Source of the DNA: a bacterium
GTDB taxonomy: Bacteria; Electryoneota; B3-LCP
Assembly (NCBI GenBank): GCA_026394195.1
Contig: JAPKYS010000023.1
Span: 540,209-604,208 of the forward strand
Direction: 5' to 3'
DNA: 64,000 nucleotides
Of this stretch, positions 10,712-48,159 are shown piece after piece; within the stretch, counting starts at the first letter, position 1; each line of letters starts with the position of its first letter. The notes under the pieces were generated by a model. The model did not search any database. It was not told the origin of the DNA and worked only from the letters and a program-made list of their open reading frames with translations. The translations under genes and the position numbers were made by a program.

Positions 10712-10745
10712 GTTTTATTAGTAAAGATGAAATGCTGGACTTACG

Positions 10746-10757
10746 GAGTTATCCACA
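10746..10757 (+). promoter_or_regulatory. GAGTTATCCACA 12-mer (perfect DnaA-box core TTATCCACA), copy 1, next to a TTGACA on the nadA strand
   Basis: Read directly. On the minus strand, TTGACA (10766-10761) is immediately followed by the box, about 35-55 nt upstream of the nadA ATG. Confidence 0.4.
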
Positions 10758-10833
10758 CTTTGTCAACAAGCGAGGGATCCTGTAGCTTCAGTTCTTAAGT
10801 CTTTTATTTTCTGCACATCAAGAGAAATACGCC

Positions 10834-10861
10834 GAAAAGAATCACTCATGTGAATTCTTTT
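10834..10861 (-). terminator. Possible terminator hairpin downstream of the Fic gene
   Basis: Imperfect stem agaatcac/gtgaattct, followed on the minus strand by TTTTC. Confidence 0.35.
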
Positions 10862-10866
10862 ACCTT

Positions 10867-10878
10867 GAGTTATCCACA
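10867..10878 (+). promoter_or_regulatory. GAGTTATCCACA 12-mer (perfect DnaA-box core), copy 2
   Basis: Identical 12-mer in the same orientation, 121 bp from copy 1. Confidence 0.4.
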
Positions 10879-10896
10879 ATCGAATTCCCTCAATTT

Positions 10897-12357: not shown

Positions 12358-12384
12358 TTCGTCGGAAAAGACTGAGGAGGCGGA

Positions 12385-12939
12385 TCAACTCGTCCGCCAT
12401 TTGATCGAGCAGCCCAGCGAGGGGATTTGTTCGGATGCAGGCTGTTTCCCATTTAAGAGAGCCGCTACCGCCTCTCTTAGATCCTGCTTTTTCACCTTGA
12501 GTGGTTCCTTCCAGTTATCATCCAGGCGTCCGTGATAGGCTAATTTGCGATCCGGTCCCCAGACGTAAAATTCGGGCGTGCATACCGCTCCGAAAGCCCT
12601 GGCAACGTCCTGACCTAAATCATGCAGGTAGGGGAATCGATAGTCTTTCTCAAGCCAGCGTTTCTTCAGATTCTCAAAGGAATCAGCGGGAACGTAATCG
12701 GGGTCATTGGAACAGACCGCTACCAATTGAACACTTTGCTGCGAAAAGTCACGCTGCAATTTGATGATACGATCCTCGACCGCCTGCGCATAGGGGCAGT
12801 GATTGCAGGTGAAAATGACGATCAGGACTTGTTTATCCTGAAAATCAGCCAGCCGGTAATTTTCCCCATCAACAGCAGGAAGATTAAAATCAGGGCATGT
12901 GGTTCCCAGAGCTACTTGGGTGCTGTCAGTCAACGCCAT
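12385..12939 (-). CDS. Thioredoxin-fold redoxin (AhpC/TSA-like thiol-disulfide oxidoreductase)
   Basis: FTCNHCPY active-site region with a redoxin-like layout. The ATG at 12939 is preferred over the TTG at 12987. Confidence 0.8.
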   Translation of the reverse strand: MALTDSTQVALGTTCPDFNLPAVDGENYRLADFQDKQVLIVIFTCNHCPYAQAVEDRIIKLQRDFSQQSVQLVAVCSNDPDYVPADSFENLKKRWLEKDYRFPYLHDLGQDVARAFGAVCTPEFYVWGPDRKLAYHGRLDDNWKEPLKVKKQDLREAVAALLNGKQPASEQIPSLGCSIKWRTS

Positions 12940-12997
12940 ATCCAATTCTCCATTTTTTATTAAGCAGGTCGGTATGATTCGCTGCAAGAGATATACG

Positions 12998-14440
12998 TCA
13001 AATGATCTCTCGCCGTAACCTCTTCACCGGGATGCCCAATTGTTCGCGATACTTTTGCACCGTGCGTCGGGCGATGGTATATCCGGCTTCCGCCAGAAGA
13101 TCCCCCAGTTTCTCGTCAGAGTAAGGATTGGATTTGCCTTCGTTATCGACGATCTCGCGCAGTCTTGCTTTGATGATCTTGGTGCTGACCTCTTCCCCAT
13201 CGTTGTTTTCCATCCGCTGGCTGAAGAAGTACTTCAATTCGAAGACGCCAAAGTCGGTCTGCACATATTTTCCGTTGGTCACACGGGAAATCGTGGCAAT
13301 GTCCATTCCGATTTCATCGGCGATATCCTGTAATATCATGGGGCGAAGGTGTTCCTTGCCGAAGCGGAAGCAATCCTCCTGTTTCTTGACAATCGCTCGC
13401 GTGGTCTTCAGCATGGTGGAGCGGCGTTGATGAATCGCGTTTACAAACCAGCGCGCCGATTCCAACTTTTTGTGCACAAAATCCTTGGTCTTTTTATCGA
13501 TCTTCTTCTTGGATAGGATCATATCCCGATATTCGGAGTTTATGTGAAAATTGGGGATATTCCCATCATTTAAAAATACCTCGAATTTATCGCCGATTTG
13601 AGTGACCACAAGATCAGGAATAACATAGTTTTGCTTCTCATCGAAGACGCCTTCTCCCGGTTTTGGGTTCAGTTTGATGACAGCTTCAAAAGCGAGTCGC
13701 ACTTGATCCATATTGATTTCAAGCTTTCTGGCGATCAATTCAAATTTCTTGCCGATAAATTCGTTGAAGCAATCCTGAAGCATCCTGAGAGCCGAAGGGT
13801 CTGGGTTCGGCAGCGCCTCCAGTTGTATCAAAAGGCATTCTCGCAGATTTCTGGCAGCAATACCCGGCGGATCGTAAGTCTGGATCTGCTTCAAAACTTT
13901 TTCGACGCGTTCAACTTCGACTTTCAAATCGTCTGCAATTTCCTGAATGGTAATATCAAGATAACCATCGCGGTCCAGGCTGCCGATGATGTATAACCCG
14001 ATTTCCAGGTCAGCTCCGATGTGGCGGTCGGTGCGCAGTTGGGTGATGAGATATTCGCTCAGTGTTGACGTTGCGGCGCGAGGTATTTCCTGGATTTCTA
14101 CGGTATTGGGCAGGGACCGAGGTTTATACTCGTAGAAATCTTCGTCGTTTAGCATCTCTTCCCAATCGACTTCAGAAGCTTCGGTCTTCAGAGGAGTTTC
14201 GAGCTTATCCTCCTCGTCTAATTCGTCGGCATCTTTGGGAACCGGGAGTTCTTCGTCTGCCTGGATCGTTTCCGGTTCCAACTCATCAGATTCAGCCAGA
14301 AAAGGATTCTCCTCGAGTTCAGATCGCACACGAAGTTCCAACTCGAGTAGCGGAAGCTGGATCAATTCCGAGCGCAGTATCTGTAAGGGTTGGATGGTCA
14401 GCTCGAGGCGCTGACGCAGGTCTTGTCTTAAAGTTTGCAT
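12998..14440 (-). CDS. rpoN: RNA polymerase sigma-54 factor
   Basis: Acidic region II and a C-terminal RpoN box ARRTVQKYREQLGIP. Confidence 0.93.
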   Translation of the reverse strand: MQTLRQDLRQRLELTIQPLQILRSELIQLPLLELELRVRSELEENPFLAESDELEPETIQADEELPVPKDADELDEEDKLETPLKTEASEVDWEEMLNDEDFYEYKPRSLPNTVEIQEIPRAATSTLSEYLITQLRTDRHIGADLEIGLYIIGSLDRDGYLDITIQEIADDLKVEVERVEKVLKQIQTYDPPGIAARNLRECLLIQLEALPNPDPSALRMLQDCFNEFIGKKFELIARKLEINMDQVRLAFEAVIKLNPKPGEGVFDEKQNYVIPDLVVTQIGDKFEVFLNDGNIPNFHINSEYRDMILSKKKIDKKTKDFVHKKLESARWFVNAIHQRRSTMLKTTRAIVKKQEDCFRFGKEHLRPMILQDIADEIGMDIATISRVTNGKYVQTDFGVFELKYFFSQRMENNDGEEVSTKIIKARLREIVDNEGKSNPYSDEKLGDLLAEAGYTIARRTVQKYREQLGIPVKRLRREII

Positions 14441-30081: not shown

Positions 30082-30957
30082 TCAGGCGGGGTATTCCAGG
30101 ACGAGCCCCTGATCGATGTTCAACAGGGTAGTTTTGAGAATTTTTCCGGCGAGGCTCAGGTCAAAGGTATTATTTTTTGGGTAGGAAACCTGAGTCGACG
30201 CGATATCAGTTTGGGAGGGGATCAGAAGAGTTGAATCCAGGTGCAGATGCTCTGCCAACTTGTGAGCAAAGGTGACTCTGTCGGTGGGCTCCGATCCTCC
30301 AAGATGGAGCAGCCCCTTCCAGTCGCTCTGCGCCAGTTCCCAAACGCATTGCGACAGGTTGGTCACCGACATGAAATTACGGAATTGATCAGCGAAGAGA
30401 AAATACGGTTTTCCACCCTGGACACGCTGGATAACCTCCTCAGTGAAGGAAGTACCACCGATAGCGGGCTTACCGTAACTCAGATTAAGGCGAATCACCA
30501 CCAGGTCGGAACAGGTTTCCTGCACACGCCGTTCGGCTGCCAGCTTGGTACATCCGTAAAAGTTGACGGGCTGCGGCAGATCCGTTTCGCTGTAATTGCC
30601 CTTGGACCCATCAAAGACCATGTCGCTGGAAAAGAAGATCAATCGTATCCCATATTCGACGCAGAGTTCAGCCAATTGTCCAGTAAACCAGCTGTTCATC
30701 TCCCAAGCGGCAGTCGGAGCATTCTCGCAGAATGCAACGCTTGAATACCCGGCGCAGTGGATGAGCAGATCGGGTTTGATCCCCTTTAGGATAGCGTTAA
30801 CCGCATTCAAATCTCGTAAATCAACGCGCAGCGTGCGCGAAGAATTCTCGCGCACGTTGTTATCAAGGTAAGTACCCCAGGTTTCTATATCGGTAGGAGC
30901 GTCAAGAAAGAGGCGGCCCCCAATGAATCCGGATGCACCGGTAATTAATGCTCTCAT
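30082..30957 (-). CDS. SDR-family NAD(P)-dependent reductase, dTDP-4-dehydrorhamnose reductase (RmlD)-like
   Basis: ITGASGFIGG Rossmann motif, SSDMVFDGSKGNYSETD and YGCTKLAAE (YxxxK). Confidence 0.72.
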   Translation of the reverse strand: MRALITGASGFIGGRLFLDAPTDIETWGTYLDNNVRENSSRTLRVDLRDLNAVNAILKGIKPDLLIHCAGYSSVAFCENAPTAAWEMNSWFTGQLAELCVEYGIRLIFFSSDMVFDGSKGNYSETDLPQPVNFYGCTKLAAERRVQETCSDLVVIRLNLSYGKPAIGGTSFTEEVIQRVQGGKPYFLFADQFRNFMSVTNLSQCVWELAQSDWKGLLHLGGSEPTDRVTFAHKLAEHLHLDSTLLIPSQTDIASTQVSYPKNNTFDLSLAGKILKTTLLNIDQGLVLEYPA

Positions 30958-30999: not shown

Positions 31000-31794
31000 T
31001 CAGAAGCCGGCGGTCAGAACCAGGCGAATCTCATTGGAGGAATTGGCAAAAGTGGGTTCAACGCTCAAACCAAGCTGTCCCGTTTTCTGACGCTTCAACA
31101 AGGCGGAGGCTTTTTTCCCTGTATCGACCAGTGAAATCAGGCGGTTGAGCGCAGCCGCACCTATGAAGAAGTACATGCGGTTCTTGGCTGAACGGCTTTG
31201 AATGCGAGTGTGATCGTACTCAAGGCGGTTTCCCTCCGCATCCCAGGCCCAAAAATAGGATGGGTCATTATAAAGCGCGTCGAAATCTCGATTCAGCAGC
31301 TTCGCCTGATTGTATTCATCAGTGTTGTTGTAATTCCCTATATCTGCATAGTATTTGTCTGACCTGCCCGACATGTGAGCTCCGGAGTGCGTGGCGGCAT
31401 AGGAGATAAACTGGTCTTCACGCCATTGACCATACACGTATTGAGTAACTACCCCCGTCCAGATGGCCACGTCGGTCCAGAAAAATGCTCGCCCTGTGTT
31501 TTTGTATCCTAAGTATGATTCTCCCCAACCGGGCATTATCAAAGATCGCAACAATGCTCCCTGCCGATTGAGCTTCCTCTCCGTGCCTTGACTATCCTTG
31601 AACACTCCGCTCGTTTGATCCGCGGCGAACTGGTTGGACATAGCCATTCCAAGCTGGGAATTTTGATAGACCAGTTTGGAGTATCGTCCGTTAGCAGCGA
31701 TTTGAGCAGTTGACCCCTGCGTTTGGGCGTTGGCAGCGGATCCTGCCAAAGTCAACAGCAGGAGTATGATTATTGTAGATTTTACCGGATTCAT
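31000..31794 (-). CDS. Hypothetical membrane protein, DUF5683-like (PGWGESY hairpin)
   Basis: Signal peptide, then LLRSLIMPGWGESYLGY...FFWTDVAIWTGVV. Shares YAATHSG and KYYADIGNYN motifs with 31812-32777 and 57906-58862. Confidence 0.5.
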   Translation of the reverse strand: MNPVKSTIIILLLLTLAGSAANAQTQGSTAQIAANGRYSKLVYQNSQLGMAMSNQFAADQTSGVFKDSQGTERKLNRQGALLRSLIMPGWGESYLGYKNTGRAFFWTDVAIWTGVVTQYVYGQWREDQFISYAATHSGAHMSGRSDKYYADIGNYNNTDEYNQAKLLNRDFDALYNDPSYFWAWDAEGNRLEYDHTRIQSRSAKNRMYFFIGAAALNRLISLVDTGKKASALLKRQKTGQLGLSVEPTFANSSNEIRLVLTAGF

Positions 31795-31811: not shown

Positions 31812-32777
31812 TTAGAAGTTCAGCCTGAAAACACCCATGGTGACCTGTTCGTTGTCATAGCGGCGTGATTCCAGCCTGAAGGCGCCTTCGACGGCATGTT
31901 CTTTTGCCAGTTTACGGTTGTGAACGGATACTGCGAATCCTGCGTGCAACGCTGACAGCAGATGATTCGCCATCACTACCATGGTAAAGTCCTTGGATGA
32001 ATTGAGGGCGTCGTTGGATTCTTTACGCATGTTCAGGTAGGTTTCTCTGAAGCTATTCTTGGTCTCCCATTGCCAGGTGGTGCGGGTTGCGGCGCGGTAG
32101 TTCAAATCACTGTCACCCAAAGTGGGCCAACCGGCGCCGAACTGATTGTACTTGCCGATCATTTCGTAGTACTGCTGATCATTTTTGTTAGGATCAAGCT
32201 CATGTGTAAACCCATCGCTGGGCAGATAGAGTAACTTCTCAGTCCAGGATAGCGACTGCCATTCGTCGATAAGGCCAGTATATCCCGGATCACCACCGGT
32301 TTGACCATCTTTCCCGAAGATGGTGGCAGCCCAGTATTCATAGTGCGAGTAATCGTTGAATTCTGCGAGCGTATTCGGCTGTATGGCGTCGCGATTATAA
32401 GCCCAATGTTGCTCGGCGTATGTGTGGAATTCATCATCCTTATTCATGCCCTTCTGATGATAGACCGCCACCCCAGCCCAGGCTCCCACTTCCACCGCCA
32501 TGAATAGCGCTCCCCATAGCGGACTCTTGGCGTAGATCTGCCCGGTTCCAGGTAGAATCATCGACAGCAACAGAGCCTTGCCGGGAACCAGTTTACCGGC
32601 GATTTCCGGGGCAGCTGTGGTTGAATCGGCTGGCGCCGGCTGTTCCGGCGTCTGGGTCATCGCCTGTGCCAACTGCAGGCGCATGGGGTTATAATTTAAT
32701 CTGGACTCACCATTTGGATTGGCGATCGCAGCAACTGCCAACAACAAAACTGATAATGCGATGCTTATCCAGCGCAT
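31812..32777 (-). CDS. Hypothetical membrane protein, DUF5683-like (PGTGQIY hairpin), paralog of the downstream gene
   Basis: LLLSMILPGTGQIYAKSPLWGALFMAVEVGAWAGV, plus the EYWAATIFGKDG..GGD and QQYYEMIGKYNQFGAGWP motifs. Confidence 0.5.
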   Translation of the reverse strand: MRWISIALSVLLLAVAAIANPNGESRLNYNPMRLQLAQAMTQTPEQPAPADSTTAAPEIAGKLVPGKALLLSMILPGTGQIYAKSPLWGALFMAVEVGAWAGVAVYHQKGMNKDDEFHTYAEQHWAYNRDAIQPNTLAEFNDYSHYEYWAATIFGKDGQTGGDPGYTGLIDEWQSLSWTEKLLYLPSDGFTHELDPNKNDQQYYEMIGKYNQFGAGWPTLGDSDLNYRAATRTTWQWETKNSFRETYLNMRKESNDALNSSKDFTMVVMANHLLSALHAGFAVSVHNRKLAKEHAVEGAFRLESRRYDNEQVTMGVFRLNF

Positions 32778-32946: not shown

Positions 32947-35900
32947 CTATCTGCCGATAAAAGGTATATCGCTGCGCCTGAGATTAAAGTTAAACAACAG
33001 CGTTAGATAATACCGCCATTCCCGGCCGTATTCGTGTACGCCGTTGTCATCGACGATATTAAAACGATTGAATCCGTAAGCTGCGTCTATGGTCAGCGCG
33101 CTGGGAAAGGTGGTAAAACTGAAGAATTGTACCTTCAGAGCTGCTCCGGCGTCCGTCTTCAGATCTTCCTTTTGAAATTCACCCGTCCAGGAATTGCCGA
33201 CGTCGCCGTAGCCCTGAAGATAAACTTTATCGAGGCTGATGATACCCAGATTGCCGGCAATGTCACGCCAGATCGGAAGGGTATAAATTCCACGCAGAAT
33301 TCCTTTGCGGGTGCCTCCCATGCTGTAATAGGAGTATCCTTTCATGCCGTCAAGCCCCCCCGCATAGAGGTAGAAGAAAGAATCGACCGTGTGATCCAAG
33401 TAGCCCAGATCCGCTGTAAATGTAAGACTGTGACCCTTCATCAATGGCGACTTGAAATAGCGGTCAGCCAAGAGTTGGAAGCGATTGTACTTATAGGGGG
33501 TGTAGACTTCCTGGATGGTTCCTTTGCCGGCGTTGACGGTGAAGCCATCGATAAAGTAATTTTGTTCATGGGCGATCTCTCCCTGCAGGAAGTAACCACC
33601 GCTGGGGCTGATGTCCTGATTTCTACCGGCCAGACGGTGGTCATCCGTCACGGTCAATTCAGCGGTTTTACCCTTGAAGTAGGTATAGCCAAACACCGTC
33701 CCATCATCAAAGGTCACGTTGGTGCGGTAGCGTGATAATACCCCTGCCAGGCGGACGGTGACCACATCCATAATCTTGAACCGGATCCCGGCATCGACTT
33801 CCAGCAGGTTAAAGCTGTACTTGCTGGTGTAAGTATCGTAAAGCGGCACGGCATTCCCGCCGCTGCCGCGCTCGCCGATGATCTTGTATTGATCTTCAAA
33901 GGTCTGCTGGGTGTGACGGCGTAGATTGTAAGCTTCGATAAAAAGTGTGGGCGGGAGTCTCTTGTATTCGATCAGAGCGAAGAGGTCATAATCCTTAGCT
34001 CCATTCATGGCGAAGCCGCCGAAGGCATTCATCTGTTCCAGAATGTCCTGCGAATAAAAGTAGAGACCCGGCTTGAATTTCCCGTAATCGAAAGCGATCC
34101 GTGGGTAGATAAAGGTTTTATCGAACGTAGGCTTGTAGGGGCGTGACGGAGCATCCGGCGCCGGGACGTCGCTGTAATTCACCGGCGGAATGGTGTTCAG
34201 GTAATCGGGTTGATATACCATCCAGGTAGGATCGATAGAAACCACCGAATCCATCAACGCCATCTTATAGCCGGTCGCACGGTAATCCGCGTAGGCCATT
34301 CTGCCATCAGGGGAAACGGCAGGCATGAAAGCACCGCCAAGAACGTTGGTTACAGCGCAGACCGCTCCGGTGGAAAAATCATAACGGTAAATATTAAATA
34401 TGCCGGTGCTGTCAGATGAGAAGTAGAATTGGTCGCTGCCACTCCAATACGGGTCCCGTTCATCCGCACGGGTACTGATGACCTTATTGATTTCACCGGT
34501 TTCCAGATCGGTCAGCATAATGTCCCGATCATTATCTCGGCTGAAGGCAAATAAAATGCGGTTATTATCATCAGACCATCGAGGAGCATAGACCTGTTCA
34601 CCGTTGGAATATTGAGTCAGCGCGCGTTCAGCACTCAGTTTGGTATCTTTCTTTACCTTCCACCATTCAGGATTCAGGTCGGCGACCCAGAGATTCTGAG
34701 TGCCGTCGGAACTGACGACAAAACAAACCTTCTTGCCATCAGGCGATACGTCGACGTCGGAAGCTCTGCGGCCGGTGGTTATGCGTCTGACTTTCTTGTC
34801 CACGCAATCCCAGGCGGTGAGATCGTCGAAATGCGATCCGTGAGTTCCGGGTCCAAATTGCATATTGAAAAAGATAAATCGGCCATCGGGGCTGTAGGAC
34901 AACGGGGAATCGACCCCGGAGTACAATTGCTTCAGTTCCTTTTTCTCCAGATCGTACCGATAGAGAGCTGAGTGCATGAAATAATCGCCGCCCTTGTTGG
35001 AGGTGAACGCCAGGAATTTGCCATCGGGGCTGAAGGCTGGATGCAGATTGGCAAAACCTTCCGGTTCGATTAGGCTGCCCTCGCGGCGGTGCGTCTGTAT
35101 TTCAGCTGAACGAGTGGTGTAGGTAGCTTTTAAACTGTCGAGCCATTCTCGATGCAACTGCCCGCCATTCATACCGAGATTGCGCTTCAGAGATTGATCA
35201 AAAGTGAAGTAGAACGGTCTCTTCATGTCGGCGCTGAGACGCTGCAAGACGTCCACTCCCCAGCGATCGGCGATATAGCGCACCAGCGTAAAACCGTGGT
35301 CGTAGACTCCTTCGGCGTCGAGACTGGTCTTGCCGTAATATCCCATTTCGGTATAGGTCAGGGGCTTGCCTTCCAGAACTCGCATGCGCAAGATCATGTC
35401 GCGATGAGAATCCCAGTGGTCGTATCCAAAATCGGGACGCTGGAACTGAGAGCAGCCTTCCGCAAACCAGGGCGGGATGATGGTCAGGGGCAGCGGATAG
35501 GAAGCCAGGACATTGGGATACCCGTACAGAACGTCCGGCCGCTTCTCTTCTTCGTAATCGATCACCTGCAGATAAAACGCCGGCAACCAGCGGGGACCCT
35601 TGCGTGAAGCTCCCAATTGGATAAGGTGTGTAAATTCGTGAGAAACCACATTGCGCAGCCAGTTGTGGGTGCCGCGCAAATCGAAATCCAGGGGCTTGGC
35701 CCAGATTACGATCTTATTGTCATAATAGTATGCACCGCCGTTGGAATAGTCGTCGGTGTCGCGGACGATGATGCTGATTTTGGTATCGGGTTTGTAGTCG
35801 TAGAGGGAGGTAATGGGCTGGTAATCTTCTTCGGCGATGCGCAGAATTTCGCGGGCGGTTCTTTCGGCGCCCTGATGGTACATGATCTTGAAATGATCCG

Positions 35901-36021
35901 ATTCGTAGACTTCCCATTTCAGTTCGGGGTGGTTGTACTCTTCCGGTTGAGCCAGAAGTGATGCCGGGGCTGAAATCAACAACAGAGCAAATACGATCAG
36001 AACATTCAACCGGAATTTCAT
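32947..36021 (-). CDS. Large secreted protein: N-terminal HExxH metallopeptidase-like domain + PD40/TolB-like beta-propeller repeats + C-terminal region that may be an outer-membrane beta-barrel
   Basis: Signal peptide MKFRLNVLIVFALLLISAPASLLA. HEFTH at 35626-35640. Repeated P.FSPDG+...F.S motifs (PAFSPDGKFLAFTS, LSYSPDGRFIFF, DVSPDGKKVCFV, PAVSPDGRMAY). The barrel call rests only on an alternating-residue impression of the C-terminal 450 aa. The ATG at 36021 overlaps the upstream TGA (TGATG), so the track N-terminal extension to 36126 is discounted. Confidence 0.6.
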   Translation of the reverse strand: MKFRLNVLIVFALLLISAPASLLAQPEEYNHPELKWEVYESDHFKIMYHQGAERTAREILRIAEEDYQPITSLYDYKPDTKISIIVRDTDDYSNGGAYYYDNKIVIWAKPLDFDLRGTHNWLRNVVSHEFTHLIQLGASRKGPRWLPAFYLQVIDYEEEKRPDVLYGYPNVLASYPLPLTIIPPWFAEGCSQFQRPDFGYDHWDSHRDMILRMRVLEGKPLTYTEMGYYGKTSLDAEGVYDHGFTLVRYIADRWGVDVLQRLSADMKRPFYFTFDQSLKRNLGMNGGQLHREWLDSLKATYTTRSAEIQTHRREGSLIEPEGFANLHPAFSPDGKFLAFTSNKGGDYFMHSALYRYDLEKKELKQLYSGVDSPLSYSPDGRFIFFNMQFGPGTHGSHFDDLTAWDCVDKKVRRITTGRRASDVDVSPDGKKVCFVVSSDGTQNLWVADLNPEWWKVKKDTKLSAERALTQYSNGEQVYAPRWSDDNNRILFAFSRDNDRDIMLTDLETGEINKVISTRADERDPYWSGSDQFYFSSDSTGIFNIYRYDFSTGAVCAVTNVLGGAFMPAVSPDGRMAYADYRATGYKMALMDSVVSIDPTWMVYQPDYLNTIPPVNYSDVPAPDAPSRPYKPTFDKTFIYPRIAFDYGKFKPGLYFYSQDILEQMNAFGGFAMNGAKDYDLFALIEYKRLPPTLFIEAYNLRRHTQQTFEDQYKIIGERGSGGNAVPLYDTYTSKYSFNLLEVDAGIRFKIMDVVTVRLAGVLSRYRTNVTFDDGTVFGYTYFKGKTAELTVTDDHRLAGRNQDISPSGGYFLQGEIAHEQNYFIDGFTVNAGKGTIQEVYTPYKYNRFQLLADRYFKSPLMKGHSLTFTADLGYLDHTVDSFFYLYAGGLDGMKGYSYYSMGGTRKGILRGIYTLPIWRDIAGNLGIISLDKVYLQGYGDVGNSWTGEFQKEDLKTDAGAALKVQFFSFTTFPSALTIDAAYGFNRFNIVDDNGVHEYGREWRYYLTLLFNFNLRRSDIPFIGR

Positions 36022-39000
36022 CACTTCACCACCGCGATCTTGATAAATGCCGTCTCCTTTTGTCCGCCGGCTGAGGCTTCGACTCTGCCAATGTAGACTC
36101 CGGACGATACGCCGTCCAGATTCCAATGCAGTTCGCCTTCAATACCTGCCTCGGAAGAACCCGTAAGCTCCTTAACCAGATCTCCTGAACCATCAAAGAT
36201 GCGGACGGATATTTTCCCGGATTGCCCCATCTTATAACGAATATGGCTGACGTCCGTAGCCGGGTTAGGCCAGGGATAGACTTTGGACTTCACCAGGACA
36301 CTATGATCCGGCGCTGCGACGGTAACCGGGTCATAGGCGATGCTCTGGCGATAATTGCCGTTTAGATAGCCGTTCCAGGGGTGTCGTTGGTCGTCGAAAT
36401 TACCTGATTGATTCAAATGCCAGGCGTACAATATCCCCGAATCATCGACAGCGACGAGTTCAGCTTCCGGGTCATCATCCATGTTGACGACTATGGGAGA
36501 CCATAAAACTGTTCCCGCAGTCGTCTTGGGGAAACCCTTGGCGGTAGAGCTCAATTCTCCACGCGTATCAATCGAACCATCTGGCCAACCGAAAATAACC
36601 CGAAGCTCAGGTGTCAAACCCAGTTCTGAGATTATAGGGTAGCCAAAGATGGAGGTGTTGGTTTTTGACGCATCGATCAACATGGGCCAATTTGCGGCTA
36701 ACACACCATTATTTTGCACGGCAACGATGCGGTTGTCTCCGACGAGGACCAGCTCGAGCCTGCCATCGTTATCCAGATCCGCCGCAATGGGCGCAATCGG
36801 ATTATCTATCCCCGTCGACATAGGAAATCCGGGTCGATAAACACCCGTAGCGGGGTCTAATAAAATGACATTTCCACTTCCGCTGACTACGCCCAGATCG
36901 ATCCGATCTGAAAGGGTATGGATTAGTGTCAGGGGATACCGAGGAATATTAAATGGAAGATTTATTTTCCAGGTAATCTGTAAATCCTGCGTAACCAAAG
37001 CAGCTTGTCCGCTGCTATAAACGATAAAAATAGGCGCATCTACCGTTGTATCGGCCAGACACATACCGCTAACCGTGCCGATGGAATCAAATACTGTGAT
37101 CTGTCCGATAAGGTTCAAACCACTTTGAAAAGCGGCAATTCCGTTTTCCGTGGTTGCGTACCATTTATTATTAATCCCACCCTGCGTAATTAACGGTGTA
37201 CCGTTGTCCAGCCCGGGAACTGAGAGCGAGTCATGTTCAACCATTCCCGTGGAGAGGGTGTATTGAAAACTGTGAGCGTATTCGTCGTTTGAAGTAAAGA
37301 AAGCGATAAAACCATCATCAGTTTGATCGACTGCAGGGATTGAGTTGATTCCACTGATTTTAGCTAAGAGCGTGTCCTGTGTGGTGGTGATCTCACCCAT
37401 CAGGCTGGTATCGGTCCGAGTGGAATAAACCGAACCGATTGAGTGACCGTCAGTATCGAAAAGCTGAATCGCTCCATTAGTGGAAAACACCAGAAGAAAA
37501 TCGATTCGGTTGTCGAGATTAACATCAAGCGGGCAGGGTGGATAAATACTGCCCTCGCCGGCTAATTTTTTGGGGAATCCGACCTGCGCCCAATCGCTCT
37601 TGACCCAGAAGCTCATGACGGAGTCTATTGAAGAAAATCCACCGATCTTCAGACCGGTACTGGAATTGTCCTGCGAGCGCGTCCCCGGATGGGAATCGTC
37701 GTAAAACAGTACGGTGTGGCTCAGCAACTGTGGATTTGCATTCAGAAATTGTTGATTTCCTGCGAAGAAAAAGTCTCCAGCCCATCCGAATTCGGTCCCA
37801 TAACCGACGTCGAGGAAACTGTATCCCTTGCCGATATCAGGAGCGCCGTCTGCTTCAATCAGGGAAACGCCTCTTTTTTCCGGGTCATTATTTACGGTAT
37901 TGGAGGCATAATTCTGATAGATAACCTGATCGTTCACATGCCAGATCAAGATCCCTTCCCCGGGCAGACCAAAATCGTAGTTGTCGACTCGGACGATCAC
38001 CTTAAATCCACTGTCCGCTTCGACGGTGTAATCGTCCTTGATTTTCAGTTTTCTGCCGTCGCGGTCGTAGGCATAGGTATAGCCCAGGGAATCGGGATCC
38101 CAGGACCGGTTCTCGATCAGGTAGTATTCCGATTCGTTGAGATTGAGGCGATAGATCTCATGTTGCGCTGTATCAGTGGGAGTTCCTCGCCCGGTAAGAT
38201 TCACCTTGAAGGTGTCCTCAACGGCAGCAGGCGTGATCAGGAGTGGTTCTTCCCATCCCATGAATACCCTCGACCAGGCACATGGTCTTGATGGGATCAT
38301 TCCGGCAAAGTTGCCGGAACCCTGATCCATCAGATCGAATCGTCCCACGCCGGAAGCCCCGGTTTCGGTATCATAGAGGGCGGGCAAACCGATCCACTGA
38401 GCAAACAGCAGCGTCGCGGTGCCATTCAGGGCGATCTCGACGTCCACTTCAAATTGGCGCTCGGTTTCCGGTAAGAGCATTCCGCCGGTCACAAAAATGT
38501 TGCCTGCGGGAATACCCGGAAAGGTGGGATCATCTAACGACTGACGCAGATCGTCCAGAGTGAAGTAGGCTGAGGGTATGTCATGCGGAGTTTCGTCGAA
38601 ACCGACGGTGAAATCCTGTCCGGTTCCGGCGTGAAAGATGACGAAGGTGTCCCATTGGGTGAAATCGATGCCGGTATCTGCTGCGGCGGCTTTCCAGGAA
38701 TCTTGAAACAGTTCCGCCAGCCGTTTGTCCAGGTCTTCCTTGCCCAGATTGTAGTTGTAATGCCACATCTGGTTGGGCAGCCGGTAGGCGCTGTCAGCTT
38801 GCTGGGGATAGACGGCGAAGGTATCGATGCTTATCTTGCCCTTGGAAACCTCTCCGAAGTAATTCTTCAAGAAGCTGAGGTGATCCTCAAAATAGGCTCT
38901 GTCATGTGGAAGTGGATCTACTGAGGCGGAGGCGGGATACCCGGATTCAAATAGTCCGTTTCCCGTCGTAGTTGAAATGCTGTCCGGTTGGAAATCCACC

Positions 39001-39179
39001 CTGATTGCGAGGATTTTGTAGTGTCGGACCGGGAGTGTCGCCACAGGAAGCGCCTGTCGTCCAGCGTGAAATAGAGCCGGATTCAGCAAGGGGATCTTCC
39101 CGGCGGCAAAAGCAGATGCGGATAGGAAAAGCCCCCAAAGAATGGGGGCAACGAGCCATCTTTTCAGGTTCCGTCGCAC
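36021..39179 (-). CDS. M6/InhA-like domain protein with a degenerate zinc site, FG-GAP/VCBS-like repeats and a T9SS C-terminal sorting domain
   Basis: KILAIRVDFQPD and FVIFHAGTGQD match the M6 domain pattern. LLFAQWIGLPALYDT (38370-38411) sits where HEFGHxLGLPDxYD is expected. FG-GAP-like DLDNDGRLELV and VNMDDDPEAELV. CTD YPWPNPATD...SGVYIGRVEA...KIAVVK. Confidence 0.65.
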   Translation of the reverse strand: MRRNLKRWLVAPILWGLFLSASAFAAGKIPLLNPALFHAGRQALPVATLPVRHYKILAIRVDFQPDSISTTTGNGLFESGYPASASVDPLPHDRAYFEDHLSFLKNYFGEVSKGKISIDTFAVYPQQADSAYRLPNQMWHYNYNLGKEDLDKRLAELFQDSWKAAAADTGIDFTQWDTFVIFHAGTGQDFTVGFDETPHDIPSAYFTLDDLRQSLDDPTFPGIPAGNIFVTGGMLLPETERQFEVDVEIALNGTATLLFAQWIGLPALYDTETGASGVGRFDLMDQGSGNFAGMIPSRPCAWSRVFMGWEEPLLITPAAVEDTFKVNLTGRGTPTDTAQHEIYRLNLNESEYYLIENRSWDPDSLGYTYAYDRDGRKLKIKDDYTVEADSGFKVIVRVDNYDFGLPGEGILIWHVNDQVIYQNYASNTVNNDPEKRGVSLIEADGAPDIGKGYSFLDVGYGTEFGWAGDFFFAGNQQFLNANPQLLSHTVLFYDDSHPGTRSQDNSSTGLKIGGFSSIDSVMSFWVKSDWAQVGFPKKLAGEGSIYPPCPLDVNLDNRIDFLLVFSTNGAIQLFDTDGHSIGSVYSTRTDTSLMGEITTTQDTLLAKISGINSIPAVDQTDDGFIAFFTSNDEYAHSFQYTLSTGMVEHDSLSVPGLDNGTPLITQGGINNKWYATTENGIAAFQSGLNLIGQITVFDSIGTVSGMCLADTTVDAPIFIVYSSGQAALVTQDLQITWKINLPFNIPRYPLTLIHTLSDRIDLGVVSGSGNVILLDPATGVYRPGFPMSTGIDNPIAPIAADLDNDGRLELVLVGDNRIVAVQNNGVLAANWPMLIDASKTNTSIFGYPIISELGLTPELRVIFGWPDGSIDTRGELSSTAKGFPKTTAGTVLWSPIVVNMDDDPEAELVAVDDSGILYAWHLNQSGNFDDQRHPWNGYLNGNYRQSIAYDPVTVAAPDHSVLVKSKVYPWPNPATDVSHIRYKMGQSGKISVRIFDGSGDLVKELTGSSEAGIEGELHWNLDGVSSGVYIGRVEASAGGQKETAFIKIAVVK

Positions 39180-39183
39180 TTAG

Positions 39184-40245
39184 TTATATACCCAGCGTCA
39201 AGGAAAACATCATCGTGTCTGTCAACGGGTGTCCTTCGCCGGCGGAAACGTATCCGAAATCAAAGCGGTAGGACGAATAGGCGAGCGAAAAACCGAAGGT
39301 AATGGGTTTGCGGTCACCCAATTTGTCGTAGTAGTATCCCATCCTCAGACCAACCAGATTCGAATACCAGTACTCGACGCCGAAGTTGGGGATGATTCCG
39401 TCAATTTCGTTCGCAATGGGATTATTGGACCATGCGCTGAAGAGCGCTATGTAGAACGGTACGGCGCGTCCGTCATCGTAGCGATCGACAAGTTCTTTCT
39501 GCGCGTCAAGGTTGAAGATCAACCGGTTGAACTCGTTATCGATCAATTTATAGGAAGCTCCGATGCGGATGGTCATCGGCAAGGGGTCAGCCTGAGCGCG
39601 GTCGATGTAGGAGATCGCCGGACCCATGTTGGTCAGAGTAGCGGCAAGCGAGAGCCCTCTGGTGAACGCTTCACGGTACATTACGCCGACGTCCACAGCA
39701 AGGCTGGTGCCGACGCCGGAACCTTTTTCCGCGCCTGCGCCCTGATCGGACAGGTGGCTGTAGATAAATTTCGCTGCAACCCCAACCCCAAGTTTGTTAT
39801 TGACCGGCGATCCATATGCCCCGGTAAATGCAACGTCATAACTATGGAAATTCCCGGTCACCTGGTTGTTTTCGTCCCGTCCTTCAGTCTCACCATAGTT
39901 GGTGAAGATTACGTTGCCGCCGATGGTGCCCCAATCGGGGACGTGCTGAACGTACGAAAGGAAGCTGTAGTAAAGATCTGACAAGTGAAATTGAGGCAGC
40001 AGGTTCACGTACATCAAAGCGACTTCCTGCCTCTCGATGAACGCCATGCCTGCCGGATTCCACCAGGTCGCCGTGGCATCATCGGCTTGAGCCACGAAGG
40101 CTTCACCCATTCCAGCCGGTCTGGCTCCCGGCACCAATTTCAGAAAGATAACACCTGATTCTGAGGGGCCATCAGCCTGAACCATCACCGGCCAGATCGA
40201 GAGACCAATTAGAATCGCCATCGCAGCAGCCAAACGCCGGATCAT
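39184..40245 (-). CDS. porV: T9SS outer-membrane shuttle protein PorV (PorV/PorQ family)
   Basis: LKLVPGARPAGMGEAFVAQADDATATWWNPAGMAF signature, about 350-aa barrel, immediately downstream of the porU-like gene. Start chosen at MIRRLAAAMAILIG (signal peptide); alternatives are 40278 or 40335. Confidence 0.7.
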   Translation of the reverse strand: MIRRLAAAMAILIGLSIWPVMVQADGPSESGVIFLKLVPGARPAGMGEAFVAQADDATATWWNPAGMAFIERQEVALMYVNLLPQFHLSDLYYSFLSYVQHVPDWGTIGGNVIFTNYGETEGRDENNQVTGNFHSYDVAFTGAYGSPVNNKLGVGVAAKFIYSHLSDQGAGAEKGSGVGTSLAVDVGVMYREAFTRGLSLAATLTNMGPAISYIDRAQADPLPMTIRIGASYKLIDNEFNRLIFNLDAQKELVDRYDDGRAVPFYIALFSAWSNNPIANEIDGIIPNFGVEYWYSNLVGLRMGYYYDKLGDRKPITFGFSLAYSSYRFDFGYVSAGEGHPLTDTMMFSLTLGI

Positions 40246-40489
40246 TTTGCCCCTCCCAAGGGATTTGACATACGTCATGAGATTTGTACGCCTCCAGAAA
40301 CGATTTGAGGACTTGCAACTACATATTAAAATCAAAATAGGGCTGTGAGGTTTCCAACAAATTCACTTTTTTACTGCAAAAGATGCCAAAATTCGGATTC
40401 TGGATAAATCTGGTCGATGTGTCGCTTCACGAAAGAATATTGGCGAGAGGTTGAACGAGTTGGGATCAGCGGTTATGATCGCAATCTCT

Positions 40490-43400
40490 TCATCGCATCA
40501 CGACTAATTTACTGGTTTGTAAAACCTCTTTCCCGGAAATGCCTTTCGCGATCACCTTATAGAGATACACACCGTTGGAAAGCAAATCACCTTCGCTATC
40601 CCGCCCATCCCATTGCAGGTGAGGGTCATCATAGTTAAATGAGGCGTTGCCGGGTATATCCGATAACACCCTGACCATCCTTCCGGCCACGGTGTACACT
40701 TTGATGGTCACCTGGGCAGGTTCGGTCAGGTAGAAAGTGAAACGGGTCTGATCTTTGAAGGGATTTGGGTAGTTCAGCAATTGTGTCAGTTGCAGTTCGC
40801 CCGAGGATAGCAGGTTGAAGACTACTTCCGTAACGCTGGGATTGTTGGCGGCATCCCAGGCGATGGCATGAGCCGTATGCTGACCTGCTGAGAATTCGCC
40901 GGGGGTCAGTTGATATTCAGCTCGACCAGTGGTATGACTATTGAGATAATAACTGAACGAACTGGTCAGGTTGATAGGATTTAGATCGTCGATCGTGACC
41001 ATCAGCGCGTGCCCCACGCTTCCGGTAATGTTCACGCCATTGCTGTCGGCAACTTCAACGTAAAGCACCGATTGTGATCCGACCGGATCTCCGCTGCGGA
41101 ATCCTGGATTATCAAAGTAGACTTTTAGCTGCGGCGGAGTGCTGTCTTGCAGAGCCACGGCGGAAGCTCCGAAAGTGACGCTGTCCACGTATCCTATACC
41201 GTCCGTCACGTCTGAGTAAGCATAGACGGAGACTCGCCCGCCGGATTCCCCGTAGCTGATATCCACCGGCACAATGAAATTGCTGACAAACTGGCCATCC
41301 TGAACGGATACGTCTCCGCGGAAGATCAAATTACCCGGGAGTATGTAGGTTGGAGTCGAAGGCGGTGGACCGTTATTAAAGCCGTAAAACACCGGTATCC
41401 TGACGTCAATTAATTGTAGCCGCGCGACGCCTTGAAAACCGGTGACCGGCAAACCGGATGAGGTGGTCAGTCTGCCACTGACGGCAACCTCGCCAAGCGC
41501 GTTAACGGTATCAACCTGGCTTGAGTCCAGCGCGACTTTCAACTGAGGCATCGCCAAACGCATGTAGGGATCACCCAACAGATGGTACTTTTCGGTATTG
41601 CTGTTGTTGATATAGCCGTTCCCAGGGTTATGAACAAATACGCGAGCTTTTGATCTCATCAGAGCTTCGCCCAACCTTTGACCTGTTTCCTCCCAGAATA
41701 GTTCAGTGTAGAAGTTATTGACAAAAAGCGCGTTAGAGCTGGGTCCCGTCGTGCGCGTTGCAGCAATCGCAGCGATGGCGCCTGCATCCGGCATGGTCAA
41801 CATCACTTCAGGCATGCTCTGACTGAAAGGGCTATCCCAATAAGCCCAATCGCAGGTGGCGGCAAGAAACAGCGGCAAACGGTTTTCGTTGCGCAACAGA
41901 GGAAGATCGCGGCTCTGCAGAAAAACGTGTTCGTGCGTCCAGACGGTGGGATTGCCGTGCCCCATAAAATTGATCAGTAATCTGCCATCGTTGATCGCAT
42001 TGATCAGATCCCTGGTGGCATCGGGTTTCTGTCTTCCTCCTGAGGGATCCCAGACAAGCGGATATTCGGTGAGATAGATCTTTTGTTCATTGAAGAACTT
42101 GGGGACGTAATGTTCAGCCAGATTTTCTGTATATTGAATGTGAAGGGTTTCAGAAGATGAGTATTGCCCATCCTTATACTCATCATCCGCCACGAACGTG
42201 ATCTGATCCCTCCATGGACCGAAATCGGGATTACTTTCGTAACTAATCAAGCGGGAGATAAAGGTATTGACGTCCTCGACTGACCGCGCGGTCCAACGAC
42301 CCGAAGCGACTTCGGGATAGGCATAAGCATCATTAGCTTGGGGAGTAAAATAGGAATACCAATCGTCCGTACATTCCGATCCGGATACATAGGGGATCAC
42401 GAAATTGTCATTCGTTGCAGACAGAGAGTTCTTGTAATCGAAATCACCGTCACCGACAAACAGCACGTACAGCGGCGATACTGCCCAATTATAGATTGGC
42501 AGCGTACTCTTTAAGAAATCCCGAATGGCAGTCGGATCCTGCAATCCCCAGCCATATTCATCGAAGATATCGCTCATGCGAACACGCAAAACTTCTGCCG
42601 GTGTGGGCGCGGAAGTCTCCCGATAATCCTCATAGGCTTTCATGGCATCGTAGAACTCATCAGCGACGATAACGAGAATATCTGCCCCCAAAGTGGAACG
42701 CAGATCAGTATACTCATCTCCACTCCGTTGATCTTTGTTGATCGACTGGGGGGTTAAAAGAGCATTATCATCGCAGGCGATGTAACGTTTCGGAGAGTAT
42801 GTGTGAATTTCATCGGTGAAGCTGGGAGCCTGGATGGTTTTCACGTCGCTGAAGCTGGTTACGTCGAAAATGCGAGGATTGACGAATTGCTGCAAATTGT
42901 ATTGAGCATATCCATCCACAGCAGGACTGATGAAATCTTCCCGTCCCGAACTTGCAGTCAGGCTCCGAGCGTATTCGAGTTCATAATAATCCAAATAGGC
43001 TGCACTGGCTGAAACGTGGTCCAGGCGTAGTGTATTGATCCCATTGTTAAGGGTACCAGGTGAGATATCAATTTCGATCGGCGTTGAGGTATTACTGGAA
43101 CTCAACAACGGCTCATTATTGAGGTAGATGTTGAATAGATGACTGCTGCTATCTCCCGACTGAAGTTTAAGTTTTAGATGCGCGTTGGCAGAGGCATAGA
43201 CATTGCTTAGACTGATGGTAAACGTTCGACTCGACGACCCCGAGAACAAGTCTCCAAACAGGTTGGGCATGTAAACGGGTAGATCGTAGTCATCGTAGAT
43301 TGCGTAATAACTCTTCTCTTCAAAGATATAGGCTCTGGTGTACACTGGATTATTTGTGGGTGTAGTCTGGAGCCCCAACGGTAACATTCTTTTCCCCTGA

Positions 43401-44545
43401 GGACCATTGGAATTGATACTCAGCCAGTAGACATTCGAGTCGGTATATGGGTTGAGATAGTGCTCATATCGCCCTTGTCCGCTATTCCAATTGGGGTTCC
43501 ATTTCCACTCGTTCACCGACTTGCCGTAAAAGATGATTTCGTCATCGGAGTCGAACTGGTTATTTTGGTTCTTATCCAGAACTAAAATGGCATTTTCGAT
43601 CGGACCACTGGGTCTGGGAGTCACTAAATCCTTGGGTAGTTGCTCACCGCCGTTATTGAATATCCTGATGGTGCGAAGATCCAGCCCCTGCGGGTTGATG
43701 CCGGCGCTGACCAGATCCGAATAGGTCAGATGGTACATTCCGCTTTCTGAGGTGCGTATTTTGTAAAAATCCCCTGCGGGCCATGGATCTACCAAATTGG
43801 CTTGCTGGAGTTTCTGGGCTTTCCAATTCCGGGCGACTCCGCTCCAGTTAGCGATCAAACCTCGGTAATAATCATCTTCGATCGGTCTGGGAAAAGACTG
43901 GCTAACTTGCTGTCCACCTTGGAACTCGACCCGGACGTCAATTGAATCCAGAGCAAGCAGACCGCTGTTATTCCCAGCAAACCGGAATGGATAGATCAGA
44001 AGTCTTATGGTGTTAAGGTCCCGATACGTTTGGGGTCCCTGCAACTCCACCCAGGAGCCGGGAAGCGGGCTGGAATTTGAATAATATGCCGGCGATTCGC
44101 GGTAGACCGGAATGACGTTTCCATCCGGGGTAACGGAATCTGCCGGAACGGGCGCGGGTACGTAGGGTAGACTGGCAATTCCGGCCGGAGTACTAACCGT
44201 AAGCCGAGCGGTAGCTTCGGGAGGAATTGCCAGCCAGATCACCCGCACAGGTATCTGTGGCGCTCCTTCCGGGTAGGCGTATGAAGTTCCGAGTACGATG
44301 GGCGAGCGGTACTGGCGTCCGGAGGCGTTGAGGTCGATCCAGGTAACTTCGGGTGTGCGATAACGCAGGTTAATTCCAGATGAGCTATTTTGTAAAATCT
44401 GCACATCTGCGGCAGGACCAGCGGCAGCAAAAGCGGATTTCGCCATCGAGATCAATAAAAAGAGAACGAGAATCCCCATGAGTATCCTCTCAATAGTGAT
44501 TTTTGACCTGATCCGAGAGGGGTTGTTCAGGTATTTTCCCATCAA
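40490..44545 (-). CDS. porU: T9SS C-terminal signal peptidase/sortase PorU (peptidase C25 family)
   Basis: Gingipain-type dyad context: [12 protein letters not shown] (His codon 41957-41959) and [12 protein letters not shown] (Cys codon 41854-41856). Size 1351 aa, own CTD ([16 protein letters not shown]...[10 protein letters not shown]). Followed by porV as in Bacteroidota. The ATG at 44542 is the likely start (the track start is TTG at 44545). Confidence 0.75.
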
Positions 44546-44706
44546 AATGACTCCGCCTCTTCGATCAGAAAGTTGGGAATGTCATCCTTGACCGAATATT
44601 TTAATTTACAACTGTTGCAAACCAGTTGGTGCGGATCAGTCTGGTACTCTAAATCGCCTTTGCACTTGGGGCAGGCGAGAATTTCCAACAGTTCCTTACT
44701 CAGCAT
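44542..44706 (-). CDS. Trm112/UPF0434-family small zinc-ribbon protein (54 aa)
   Basis: Below the ORF-track cutoff. My translation is [54 protein letters not shown]. It has CPxC...CxxC and the DxIPxxL tail typical of Trm112/YcaR. The stop TGA overlaps the porU ATG. Confidence 0.72.
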
Positions 44707-48082: not shown

Positions 48083-48086
48083 CCGG

Positions 48087-48159
48087 AGCGGCTGACGGGG
48101 CTCGAACCCGCAACATCCAGCTTGGGAAGCTGACACGCTACCAATTGCGTTACAGCCGC
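48087..48159 (-). tRNA. tRNA-Gly (anticodon CCC)
   Basis: Folded by hand. Acceptor GCGGCTG/CAGCCGC, D arm ACGC-AATTGGTA-GCGT, anticodon arm TCAGC-TTCCCAA-GCTGG, 5-nt variable loop, T arm GCGGG-TTCGAGC-CCCGT, discriminator U. It is 73 nt with no encoded CCA. Confidence 0.9.

Follow-up and report, generated by a model that had tools for sequence, protein, structure and literature searches.

The 64,000-nucleotide stretch of contig JAPKYS010000023.1 analysed here (the window; assembly GCA_026394195.1, Electryoneota lineage B3-LCP) contains a string of genes in which PorU and PorV from the secretion system of type IX (T9SS) are encoded together with two large envelope proteins that are candidates for unrecognised parts of the same system. 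From 44706 down to 32947, five minus-strand genes form an uninterrupted run, all of them open reading frames with the limits given to them beforehand. They encode, in order, a Trm112-like zinc ribbon, PorU, a PorV-family barrel, an M6-like pseudo-metalloprotease (M6i) and a protein that joins a zincin domain, a propeller and a barrel (g5). The TGA of the Trm112-like gene overlaps the ATG of porU as TGATG (44544-44540, read from the sequence), the TAA of porV ends at 39184 and is followed by a 4-nt spacer (ctaa) and the GTG of M6i at 39179, and the TGA of M6i overlaps the ATG of g5 in a second TGATG (36023-36019). The likeliest start of porV is the ATG at 40245, with GGGAGG just before it; this choice leaves 244 nt between porU and porV, the sole sizeable gap inside the string. 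The cluster reaches about 2 kb past the coordinates of the initial annotation to two more genes, D1 and D2 (32777-31000), with 169 nt between g5 and D1, and every envelope protein of the cluster has a signal peptide. The GC content of 47-54% is uniform and does not indicate a foreign insert.

The initial annotation, made from the letters and open reading frames alone, had listed five same-strand genes between 44706 and 32947 with the overlaps, spacer and motifs reported here, and these were confirmed from the sequence. Its description of the products was also largely upheld: a 54-aa Trm112-like zinc ribbon, a C25-type protein with a His/Cys dyad and its own C-terminal domain (CTD), a PorV-like barrel following it, a 1052-aa CTD protein with an M6-like domain that lacks HExxH, and a 1024-aa protein with HExxH, PD40 repeats and a C-terminal barrel. 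Models for C25/PorU, the CTD, PorV/PorQ, M6 and PD40 all found their matches, and the Omp85 model (PF01103) matched seven of 21 members of the g5 family and not the g5 of the window. Two details were revised. The C25-type protein is 1350 aa long when counted from its ATG, not 1351, and the FG-GAP repeats of the 1052-aa protein were replaced by a subthreshold Pfam match (21.6 bits against 26.9) in a protein whose predicted fold is nevertheless a propeller. All coordinates of cluster genes and their features given below are on the minus strand.

The first gene (44542-44706) encodes a 54-aa Trm112/YcaR-like zinc ribbon that matches Pfam Trm112p (PF03966) with 50.4 bits against a cutoff of 22; the two halves of a CxxC...CxxC ribbon, CPKC and CNSC, are visible in its translation. 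A homologue lies directly upstream of porU in eight loci and directly upstream of porV, without porU between, in six. The second gene (40490-44542) encodes PorU, the C25-type sortase of the T9SS, which matches NF033707 well over the cutoff (717.7 bits against 420, residues 257-1349) and Peptidase_C25 with E = 1e-78. It has a signal peptide, a Propeptide_C25-like N-terminus and a type A CTD of its own (TIGR04183, 32.5 bits against 23; Por_Secre_tail also matched, as it did in M6i). The context of the catalytic dyad (41846-41968) consists of FMGHGN with His862 (41951-41968) and AATCDW with Cys897 (41846-41863), and residues G861, H862, G863 and C897 are invariant in 18 homologues of 24-65% identity. 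By the family models the 1350-aa protein is a bona fide PorU, so that the initial annotation was not refuted on the terms it had set for itself, and the protein is predicted to cleave CTDs and act as a transpeptidase.

The attachment complex of the Porphyromonas gingivalis T9SS consists of PorU, PorV, PorZ and PorQ (PMC8545088, PMC5562754, PMC12365241). The third gene of the string (39184-40245) encodes a 353-aa outer-membrane barrel of the PorV/PorQ family, with 272 bits against a cutoff of 90 on NF033709 and 83 against 27 on Pfam PorV. It scores under the cutoff of the PorV equivalog (NF033710, 186.3 bits against 250), as may be compared with its orthologues in five other lineages (169-243 bits), and PorV is its best-scoring model, ahead of PorQ (104 against 220) and PorV2 (48 against 325). 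In a distant lineage (L083:4344-6536, and L084 in GCA_001787835.1) the PorV-like barrel of the cluster is 730 aa long and carries an insertion of about 360 residues after its first strand, with Reg_prop-like and PorZ-like sequence (NF052228, E = 5e-11, residues 341-426). One possibility is that a PorV/Q barrel and a PorZ-like piece have been fused in that protein.

The fourth gene (36021-39179) encodes M6i, a protein of 1052 aa with a GTG start, a signal peptide, an M6-like domain, a beta-propeller and a CTD. Its score on NF052323, a family named "T9SS-dependent M6-like inactivated metalloprotease", is 558.9 bits and falls under the cutoff of 600, as do the scores of its LCP-89, KSB1, Marinimicrobia and Caldithrix orthologues (397-545 bits); the syntenic Ignavibacteria protein, taken as an orthologue from its position, matches over its full length with 885.4 bits. 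By these scores M6i is a member of the NF052323 family, and the window protein a divergent one; no publications on the family were found in the literature. The M6 domain matches TIGR03296 with E = 9e-19. HExxH is absent from M6i and from all 60 of the 60 family members compared, and the degenerate zinc site LLFAQWIGLPALYD (38370-38411) lies putatively where active M6 enzymes carry HExxHxxGLPDxY. Many polar columns are invariant across the M6-like half of the family, which suggests that this half kept a binding function.

The type A sorting domain of M6i (36024-36272) is recognised by PF18962 (31 bits against 27, residues 970-1038) and by TIGR04183 (28.6 against 23). An AlphaFold2 model of the monomer, like that of g5, was obtained with confidence (pLDDT 86.6, pTM 0.84), and its C-terminal half is a propeller of about eight blades, for which Foldseek returned propellers of eight to nine blades, among them Cake8 (TM-score of 0.82, by target) and BamB (0.70-0.75); PorZ is missing from the top 50 matches. 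Foldseek searches with the full-length models of M6i and g5 are dominated by propellers and are therefore uninformative on the zincin, M6-like and barrel parts. The public gene call for M6i (P0121, 1007 aa) begins 45 codons downstream of the GTG and drops the signal peptide, a region to which all full-length M6i homologues align.

The fifth gene (32947-36021) encodes g5, a protein of 1024 aa in which a signal peptide is followed by a zincin domain, a TolB/PD40 propeller and an Omp85-type barrel. Its relatives number at least 3175 database proteins at E <= 1e-5, the closest 120 being full-length matches of 40-74% identity, and no curated Pfam or NCBIfam family matched the full-length protein. 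The putative zinc site (35455-35640) is formed by HEFTH (residues 128-132) and WFAEG with Glu188. Residues H128, E129, H132 and E188 are invariant in 60 sequences, and a profile of the N-terminal domain retrieved full-length proteins of which all 99 representatives, clustered at 50%, have HExxH. In the AlphaFold2 model (pLDDT 88.3, pTM 0.84) the HExxH lies on a helix of residues 121-139 and Glu188 on a helix of residues 184-192, within a mixed alpha/beta domain. The match of the window protein to Peptidase_MA_2 is weak (16.5 bits against 32.4); 18 of 21 family members match that model at E <= 0.01, with a best value of 6e-10, and one homologue, at the locus L067 to which we return below, passes its cutoff with 37.4 bits. 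A profile search of the PDB with the zincin domain found no meaningful sequence relative, and the domain itself occurs almost only at the start of proteins of 1000-1200 aa.

The propeller of g5 (34252-35076, residues 316-590) matches PD40 with 66 bits and TolB with E = 5e-16 in a profile search of the PDB, and the top Foldseek matches are TolB as well (E = 2e-11). The barrel (32995-34125, residues 633-1009) has 16 strands in the model. The long loop between strands 11 and 12 contains the invariant GGLDGMKGYSYYS (33322-33360), which resembles the Omp85 L6 motif in position and character: the window protein reads GGLDGMKGY where the L6 pattern is (V/M)(R/K)G(Y/F), and the strict motif is present in 49 of the 99 distant representatives. 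TamA barrels were matched in the PDB profile search with E = 0.003-0.008. The seven family members that match PF01103 do so with E values as low as 6e-8, and the match is strong in the orthologue at L086; the window g5 alone gave no PF01103 match at E <= 0.01. No POTRA family is among the Pfam or NCBIfam matches of g5.

A "Metallo-Omp85" class, tried as a family for g5, was ruled out: in the passages of PMC4104836 that name it, the class is defined by PF00149 and is unrelated. Elsewhere in the window, the match of a 443-aa protein (5880-7211, minus strand) to BamA is confined to the barrel part (TIGR03303, E = 7e-15, model positions 324-698), and the protein seems to be an Omp85 member whose N-terminal domain is small or missing; BLASTP found no similarity between it and the barrel of g5.

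On the 3′ side of g5, D1 (31812-32777) encodes a DUF5683-like envelope protein of 321 aa with a marginal match to PF18935 (27.2 bits against 26.7), a signal peptide, a PGTGQIY motif and a C-terminal Phe. D2 (31000-31794) encodes its 264-aa paralogue (BLASTP against D1, E = 3e-10), which does not match PF18935 and likewise has a signal peptide and a C-terminal Phe; its PGWGESY conforms to the PGxG(Q/E)xY motif that the two proteins share. The next gene (30082-30957) encodes an RmlD-like SDR of 291 aa (RmlD_sub_bind, E = 3e-48; 148 bits against 224 on the rmlD equivalog).

A scan for g5 relatives with one genome per species found them in at least 585 genomes, and the best 80 loci, each from a different species, were compared. 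Represented among them are LCP-89, Calditrichota (Caldithrix included), KSB1, Marinimicrobia, Ignavibacteria, Kryptonia, Delongbacteria and Electryonea, together with metagenome-assembled genomes (MAGs), some of the automatic taxon labels being doubtful, and their g5 proteins are 37-66% identical to that of the window. Neighbours were counted by tblastn with the window proteins in those loci that have enough flank. M6i lies directly upstream of g5 in 72 of 73 loci, PorV upstream of M6i in 59 of 60, and a DUF5683-like gene directly downstream of g5 in 69 of 70; a second DUF5683-like paralogue follows in 49 of 64. PorU is adjacent to PorV in 30 of 55 loci. An RmlD-like gene was found no more than 3.5 kb downstream in 18 of 57 loci, and L086-L088 likewise contain an epimerase/RmlD-like SDR gene. 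This gene may be a further member of the cluster; its recurrence hints at a sugar-nucleotide step tied to the cluster.

The coupling of M6i and g5 is conserved in detail. Their stop/start overlap or a near-zero spacer is kept in most loci, and in 47 of 69 no more than 206 nt separate the M6i stop from the conserved NHPELxW motif of g5, which leaves room for little beyond a signal peptide. Approached from the side of M6i, all three homologues that were looked up sit between PorV and g5. The closest loci, in LCP-89 MAGs and a MAG labelled Calditrichaeota, have g5 proteins of 62-63% identity to that of the window, PorV of 73-81%, PorU of 53-55% and M6i of 50-53%; LCP-89 is a phylum of the FCB group. 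At the other extreme, a distant g5 (P0420) is still preceded by an M6i-like gene (333 bits on NF052323) and by one for a PorV-like barrel, the barrel with the insertion of about 360 residues described above. A PorU homologue of 32% identity heads a full cluster, and one of 28% identity is found in a porU-porV pair alone. The PorU homologue search, an insensitive one, gave 76 matches, none of them labelled KSB1. In KSB1 loci (L036, L037 and L045, for example), efp-accB-accC-gcvPA abut PorV in place of PorU, which indicates that the wider neighbourhood is anciently syntenic and that PorU and other genes were inserted between. The window has homologues of these four genes about 9 kb upstream of the cluster, also on the minus strand: efp at 57809-57246, accB at 57249-56737, accC at 56698-55358 and gcvPA at 54951-53617.

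Chance co-location of the cluster genes is ruled out by the same order in almost every related locus and by the coupling of M6i with g5. PorV, M6i, g5 and the DUF5683-like genes are an evolutionarily conserved unit tied to the T9SS, of which D1 and D2 are part; they form the core because their neighbour counts are high, and PorU, at 30 of 55 loci, is frequent and not obligatory. Two features of the unit, its PorV-family barrel and its type A CTD, are specific to the T9SS, and in the window genome its core is fused into one gene string behind the Trm112-like gene and porU. The initial annotation had proposed M6i and g5 as dedicated partners of PorU and PorV in this lineage. Homologues of both genes are indeed found beside porV, so that the PorV half of the proposal stands; the PorU half does so in little more than half of the loci, and the restriction to one lineage has to be dropped, as the linkage spans many phyla of the FCB group. 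Since the order is kept across so many phyla, M6i and g5 are probably unrecognised partners of the secretion machinery. We put the probability that the module is a functional accessory unit of the T9SS, a candidate identified from gene order and family models, at about one half.

Several points weigh against that reading. PorU is unlinked in about 45% of the loci. The efp-accB-accC-gcvPA genes are also syntenic between phyla, so that the order of the cluster could be partly inherited rather than selected. One locus of the 80, L067, has g5 (10001-13201) without PorV, M6i or DUF5683-like genes. Of at least 585 matches, the 80 closest loci were compared, and more distant relatives were sampled only twice. 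The window g5 scores under the Pfam thresholds for both Omp85 and Peptidase_MA_2, and the topology of its N-terminal part is assumed from Omp85 precedent. Finally, a scan for expression signals counted 22 sigma-70 promoter-like matches against 17.2 ± 4.1 in shuffled sequence and 15 terminator-like matches against 15.8 ± 4.6, with no terminator-like site between the cluster genes and no Rfam match within the cluster; with counts close to the shuffled frequency and no intergenic terminator-like site, the scan is uninformative on operon structure.

Two loci have other neighbours. In L067, the genes around g5 are arsA, tatC and one for a multihaem cytochrome that has a T9SS CTD. On a short contig (L085:715-7090), a distant g5 relative of 1207 aa is followed by an AsmA/YhdP-like gene and not by a DUF5683-like gene, its upstream side lying beyond the contig end.

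If the module belongs to the T9SS, M6i and g5 could be functional analogues of PorZ and PorQ, the first option of the initial annotation, M6i bringing the anchoring glycolipid to PorU and g5 serving as membrane anchor, in the attachment complex of lineages that have neither PorZ nor PorQ. M6i does resemble PorZ in joining a propeller to a CTD, PorU stands at the head of the cluster in the 30 of 55 loci where it adjoins PorV, the RmlD-like sugar-nucleotide gene and its SDR counterparts recur downstream, and the barrel of the distant lineage contains its PorZ-like insert. PorZ, however, consists of two propellers and is not known to have a protease-like domain, and PorQ is a PorV-like barrel. 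The PorZ model (NF052228) matches only the CTD of M6i, with 17.5 bits against 260, PorZ is outside the top 50 fold matches of M6i, and g5 matches neither PorQ (NF033711) nor PorV; a homology of the two proteins to PorZ and PorQ is thus not supported. The g5 protein has instead a 16-strand barrel of the Omp85 type and a conserved, active-looking protease, for which a PorQ role gives no reason. We consider this functional analogy unlikely.

It is also improbable, on balance, that g5 is a general factor of outer-membrane biogenesis or quality control, a fusion of BamA-, BamB- and BepA-like parts outside the T9SS, with M6i as a common cargo gene and PorV as a neighbour by inherited synteny. The make-up of g5, in which a propeller and a zincin go with an Omp85 barrel that has an L6-like motif, would suit such a factor, and a BamA-BamB-like role was proposed for WD40-Omp85 proteins in the passages devoted to them by Heinz and Lithgow (PMC4104836). 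The wider housekeeping synteny is kept as well, the g5 of L067 stands alone and that of L085 lies beside an AsmA-like gene. Yet the order PorV-M6i-g5 with its stop/start overlap lasts down to 37% identity and into a distant lineage while the surrounding genes change, M6i adjoined g5 in each of the three look-ups made from its side, and all loci but one pair g5 with a PorV-family barrel and a type A CTD.

Very improbable is an export of g5 by itself, as a surface protease on the pattern of type Vd (PlpD), in which its zincin and propeller would be a passenger sent through or released by its own barrel to act with M6i and PorU: an enzyme domain followed by an Omp85-family barrel recalls the patatin-Omp85 proteins in passages of PMC4104836, and a surface partner would be sensible because M6i and PorU are surface proteins, but the model of g5 has no POTRA domain and no passenger-linker helix between propeller and barrel, a passenger of about 600 residues with a propeller is large, and the same passages describe the Omp85-type barrels of BamA and TamA as closed to the outside.

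For an accessory unit of the T9SS, a tentative mechanism may be outlined, each step of which we regard as possible and none as probable. M6i would be exported through the T9SS by means of its type A CTD and would then remain bound to the PorV-family barrel of the preceding gene, in the way of PorU and PorZ of P. gingivalis, which keep their CTDs. The inactive protease cleft of M6i and its propeller of about eight blades would form a surface platform for binding cargo or the anchoring glycan. The g5 protein would sit in the outer membrane by its Omp85-type barrel, with the zincin and the TolB-like propeller most probably in the periplasm, as is usual for the N-terminal domains of Omp85 proteins. 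There it might trim or clear CTD-bearing polypeptides, whether stalled cargo, released CTDs or M6i itself, and the propeller might restrict entry to the active site, a function that propellers have in tricorn and S9 peptidases. In loci with a linked porU, PorU would carry out CTD removal and attachment, and the DUF5683-like pair would be membrane accessory subunits. A still more speculative and rather doubtful extension is that PorV, M6i, g5 and the DUF5683-like proteins represent an ancestral post-translocation complex of the T9SS in the FCB superphylum, acting in sorting, attachment and CTD clearing, in place of which the Bacteroidia later adopted PorZ and PorQ.

Three other features of the window were noted. 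A 979-aa protein encoded on the plus strand (1377-4316) has a T9SS type A CTD-like C-terminus (residues 902-977) as its sole NCBIfam match and is probably T9SS cargo. A 486-aa protein (10897-12357, minus strand), which adjoins rpoN (12998-14440), has a weak match to the XopAC/AvrAC (Fic-type) effector (E = 1e-11, residues 85-230). A tRNA-Gly(CCC) gene (48085-48159, minus strand) is the only Rfam/ARAGORN match of the window.

To our knowledge, the T9SS is known nearly entirely from a few Bacteroidia, and many other FCB phyla carry it as well. The cluster names four candidate components: a CTD-bearing pseudo-protease, an Omp85-anchored protease and two DUF5683-like proteins, whose linkage to porV is conserved to about the same degree as the porU-porV pairing itself. 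If the idea of an ancestral post-translocation complex is correct, a secretion system would have among its working parts an Omp85-family barrel that carries its own protease. We do not know of such a role in the Omp85 superfamily, and the orphan WD40-Omp85 class, without a function since 2014, would gain its first. In any case that subfamily acquires a concrete and testable context, and cultivable organisms for such tests exist among the Ignavibacteria and Calditrichota. If the module replaces PorZ and PorQ, it would also show how cargo sorting and attachment have evolved.

The initial annotation knew of no described equivalent. This was too strong for the parts, since NF052323 already names the M6-like family and the WD40-Omp85 subfamily was defined in 2014. 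The separate parts are known families and architectures, and their conserved association with porV was not found in the literature, where a search on the T9SS in Ignavibacteria, Calditrichota and Marinimicrobia, or on Omp85 proteins with PD40 or HExxH, gave nothing specific beyond PMC4104836, and one on PorU2, PorV2 and DUF5683 gave spurious matches alone. In passages of that paper, WD40-Omp85 proteins are described as having a TolB-like beta-propeller and an Omp85-type barrel without POTRA domains, their function being unknown and a BamA-BamB-like role a matter of speculation (Heinz and Lithgow 2014, PMC4104836). The g5 protein agrees with this description in its TolB-like propeller, its 16-strand Omp85-type barrel with an L6-like loop and its lack of POTRA domains; its N-terminal HExxH zincin and its link to porV and the T9SS are not mentioned in those passages.

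In comparison with NF052323, M6i shares the loss of HExxH and the type A CTD, whereas the window protein scores under the family cutoff together with its orthologues from LCP-89, KSB1, Marinimicrobia and Caldithrix (397-559 bits) and the family name describes a cargo rather than a partner of the machinery. The cluster resembles the attachment complex of P. gingivalis in having neighbouring genes for a PorU that carries a CTD and for a PorV-family barrel; besides these it has a further CTD-bearing protein, one with a propeller, and a further barrel protein of the outer membrane. It differs in that M6i and g5 show no homology to PorZ and PorQ: M6i pairs an inactive M6 protease with a single propeller of about eight blades, and in g5 a conserved zincin and a TolB-like propeller are joined to an Omp85 barrel of 16 strands. 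It differs also in that all are encoded in one gene string with DUF5683-like genes, and in that the linkage does not depend on PorU in about half of the lineages. BepA is a periplasmic HExxH protease that works alongside BamA and BamB. The g5 protein likewise brings a zinc protease, a propeller and an Omp85 barrel to what is predicted to be the inner face of the outer membrane, which suggests a similar logic of quality control; unlike BepA and the BAM proteins, g5 has the three elements in a single polypeptide, its zincin has no detectable sequence relative in the PDB, and its genomic partners are parts of the T9SS.

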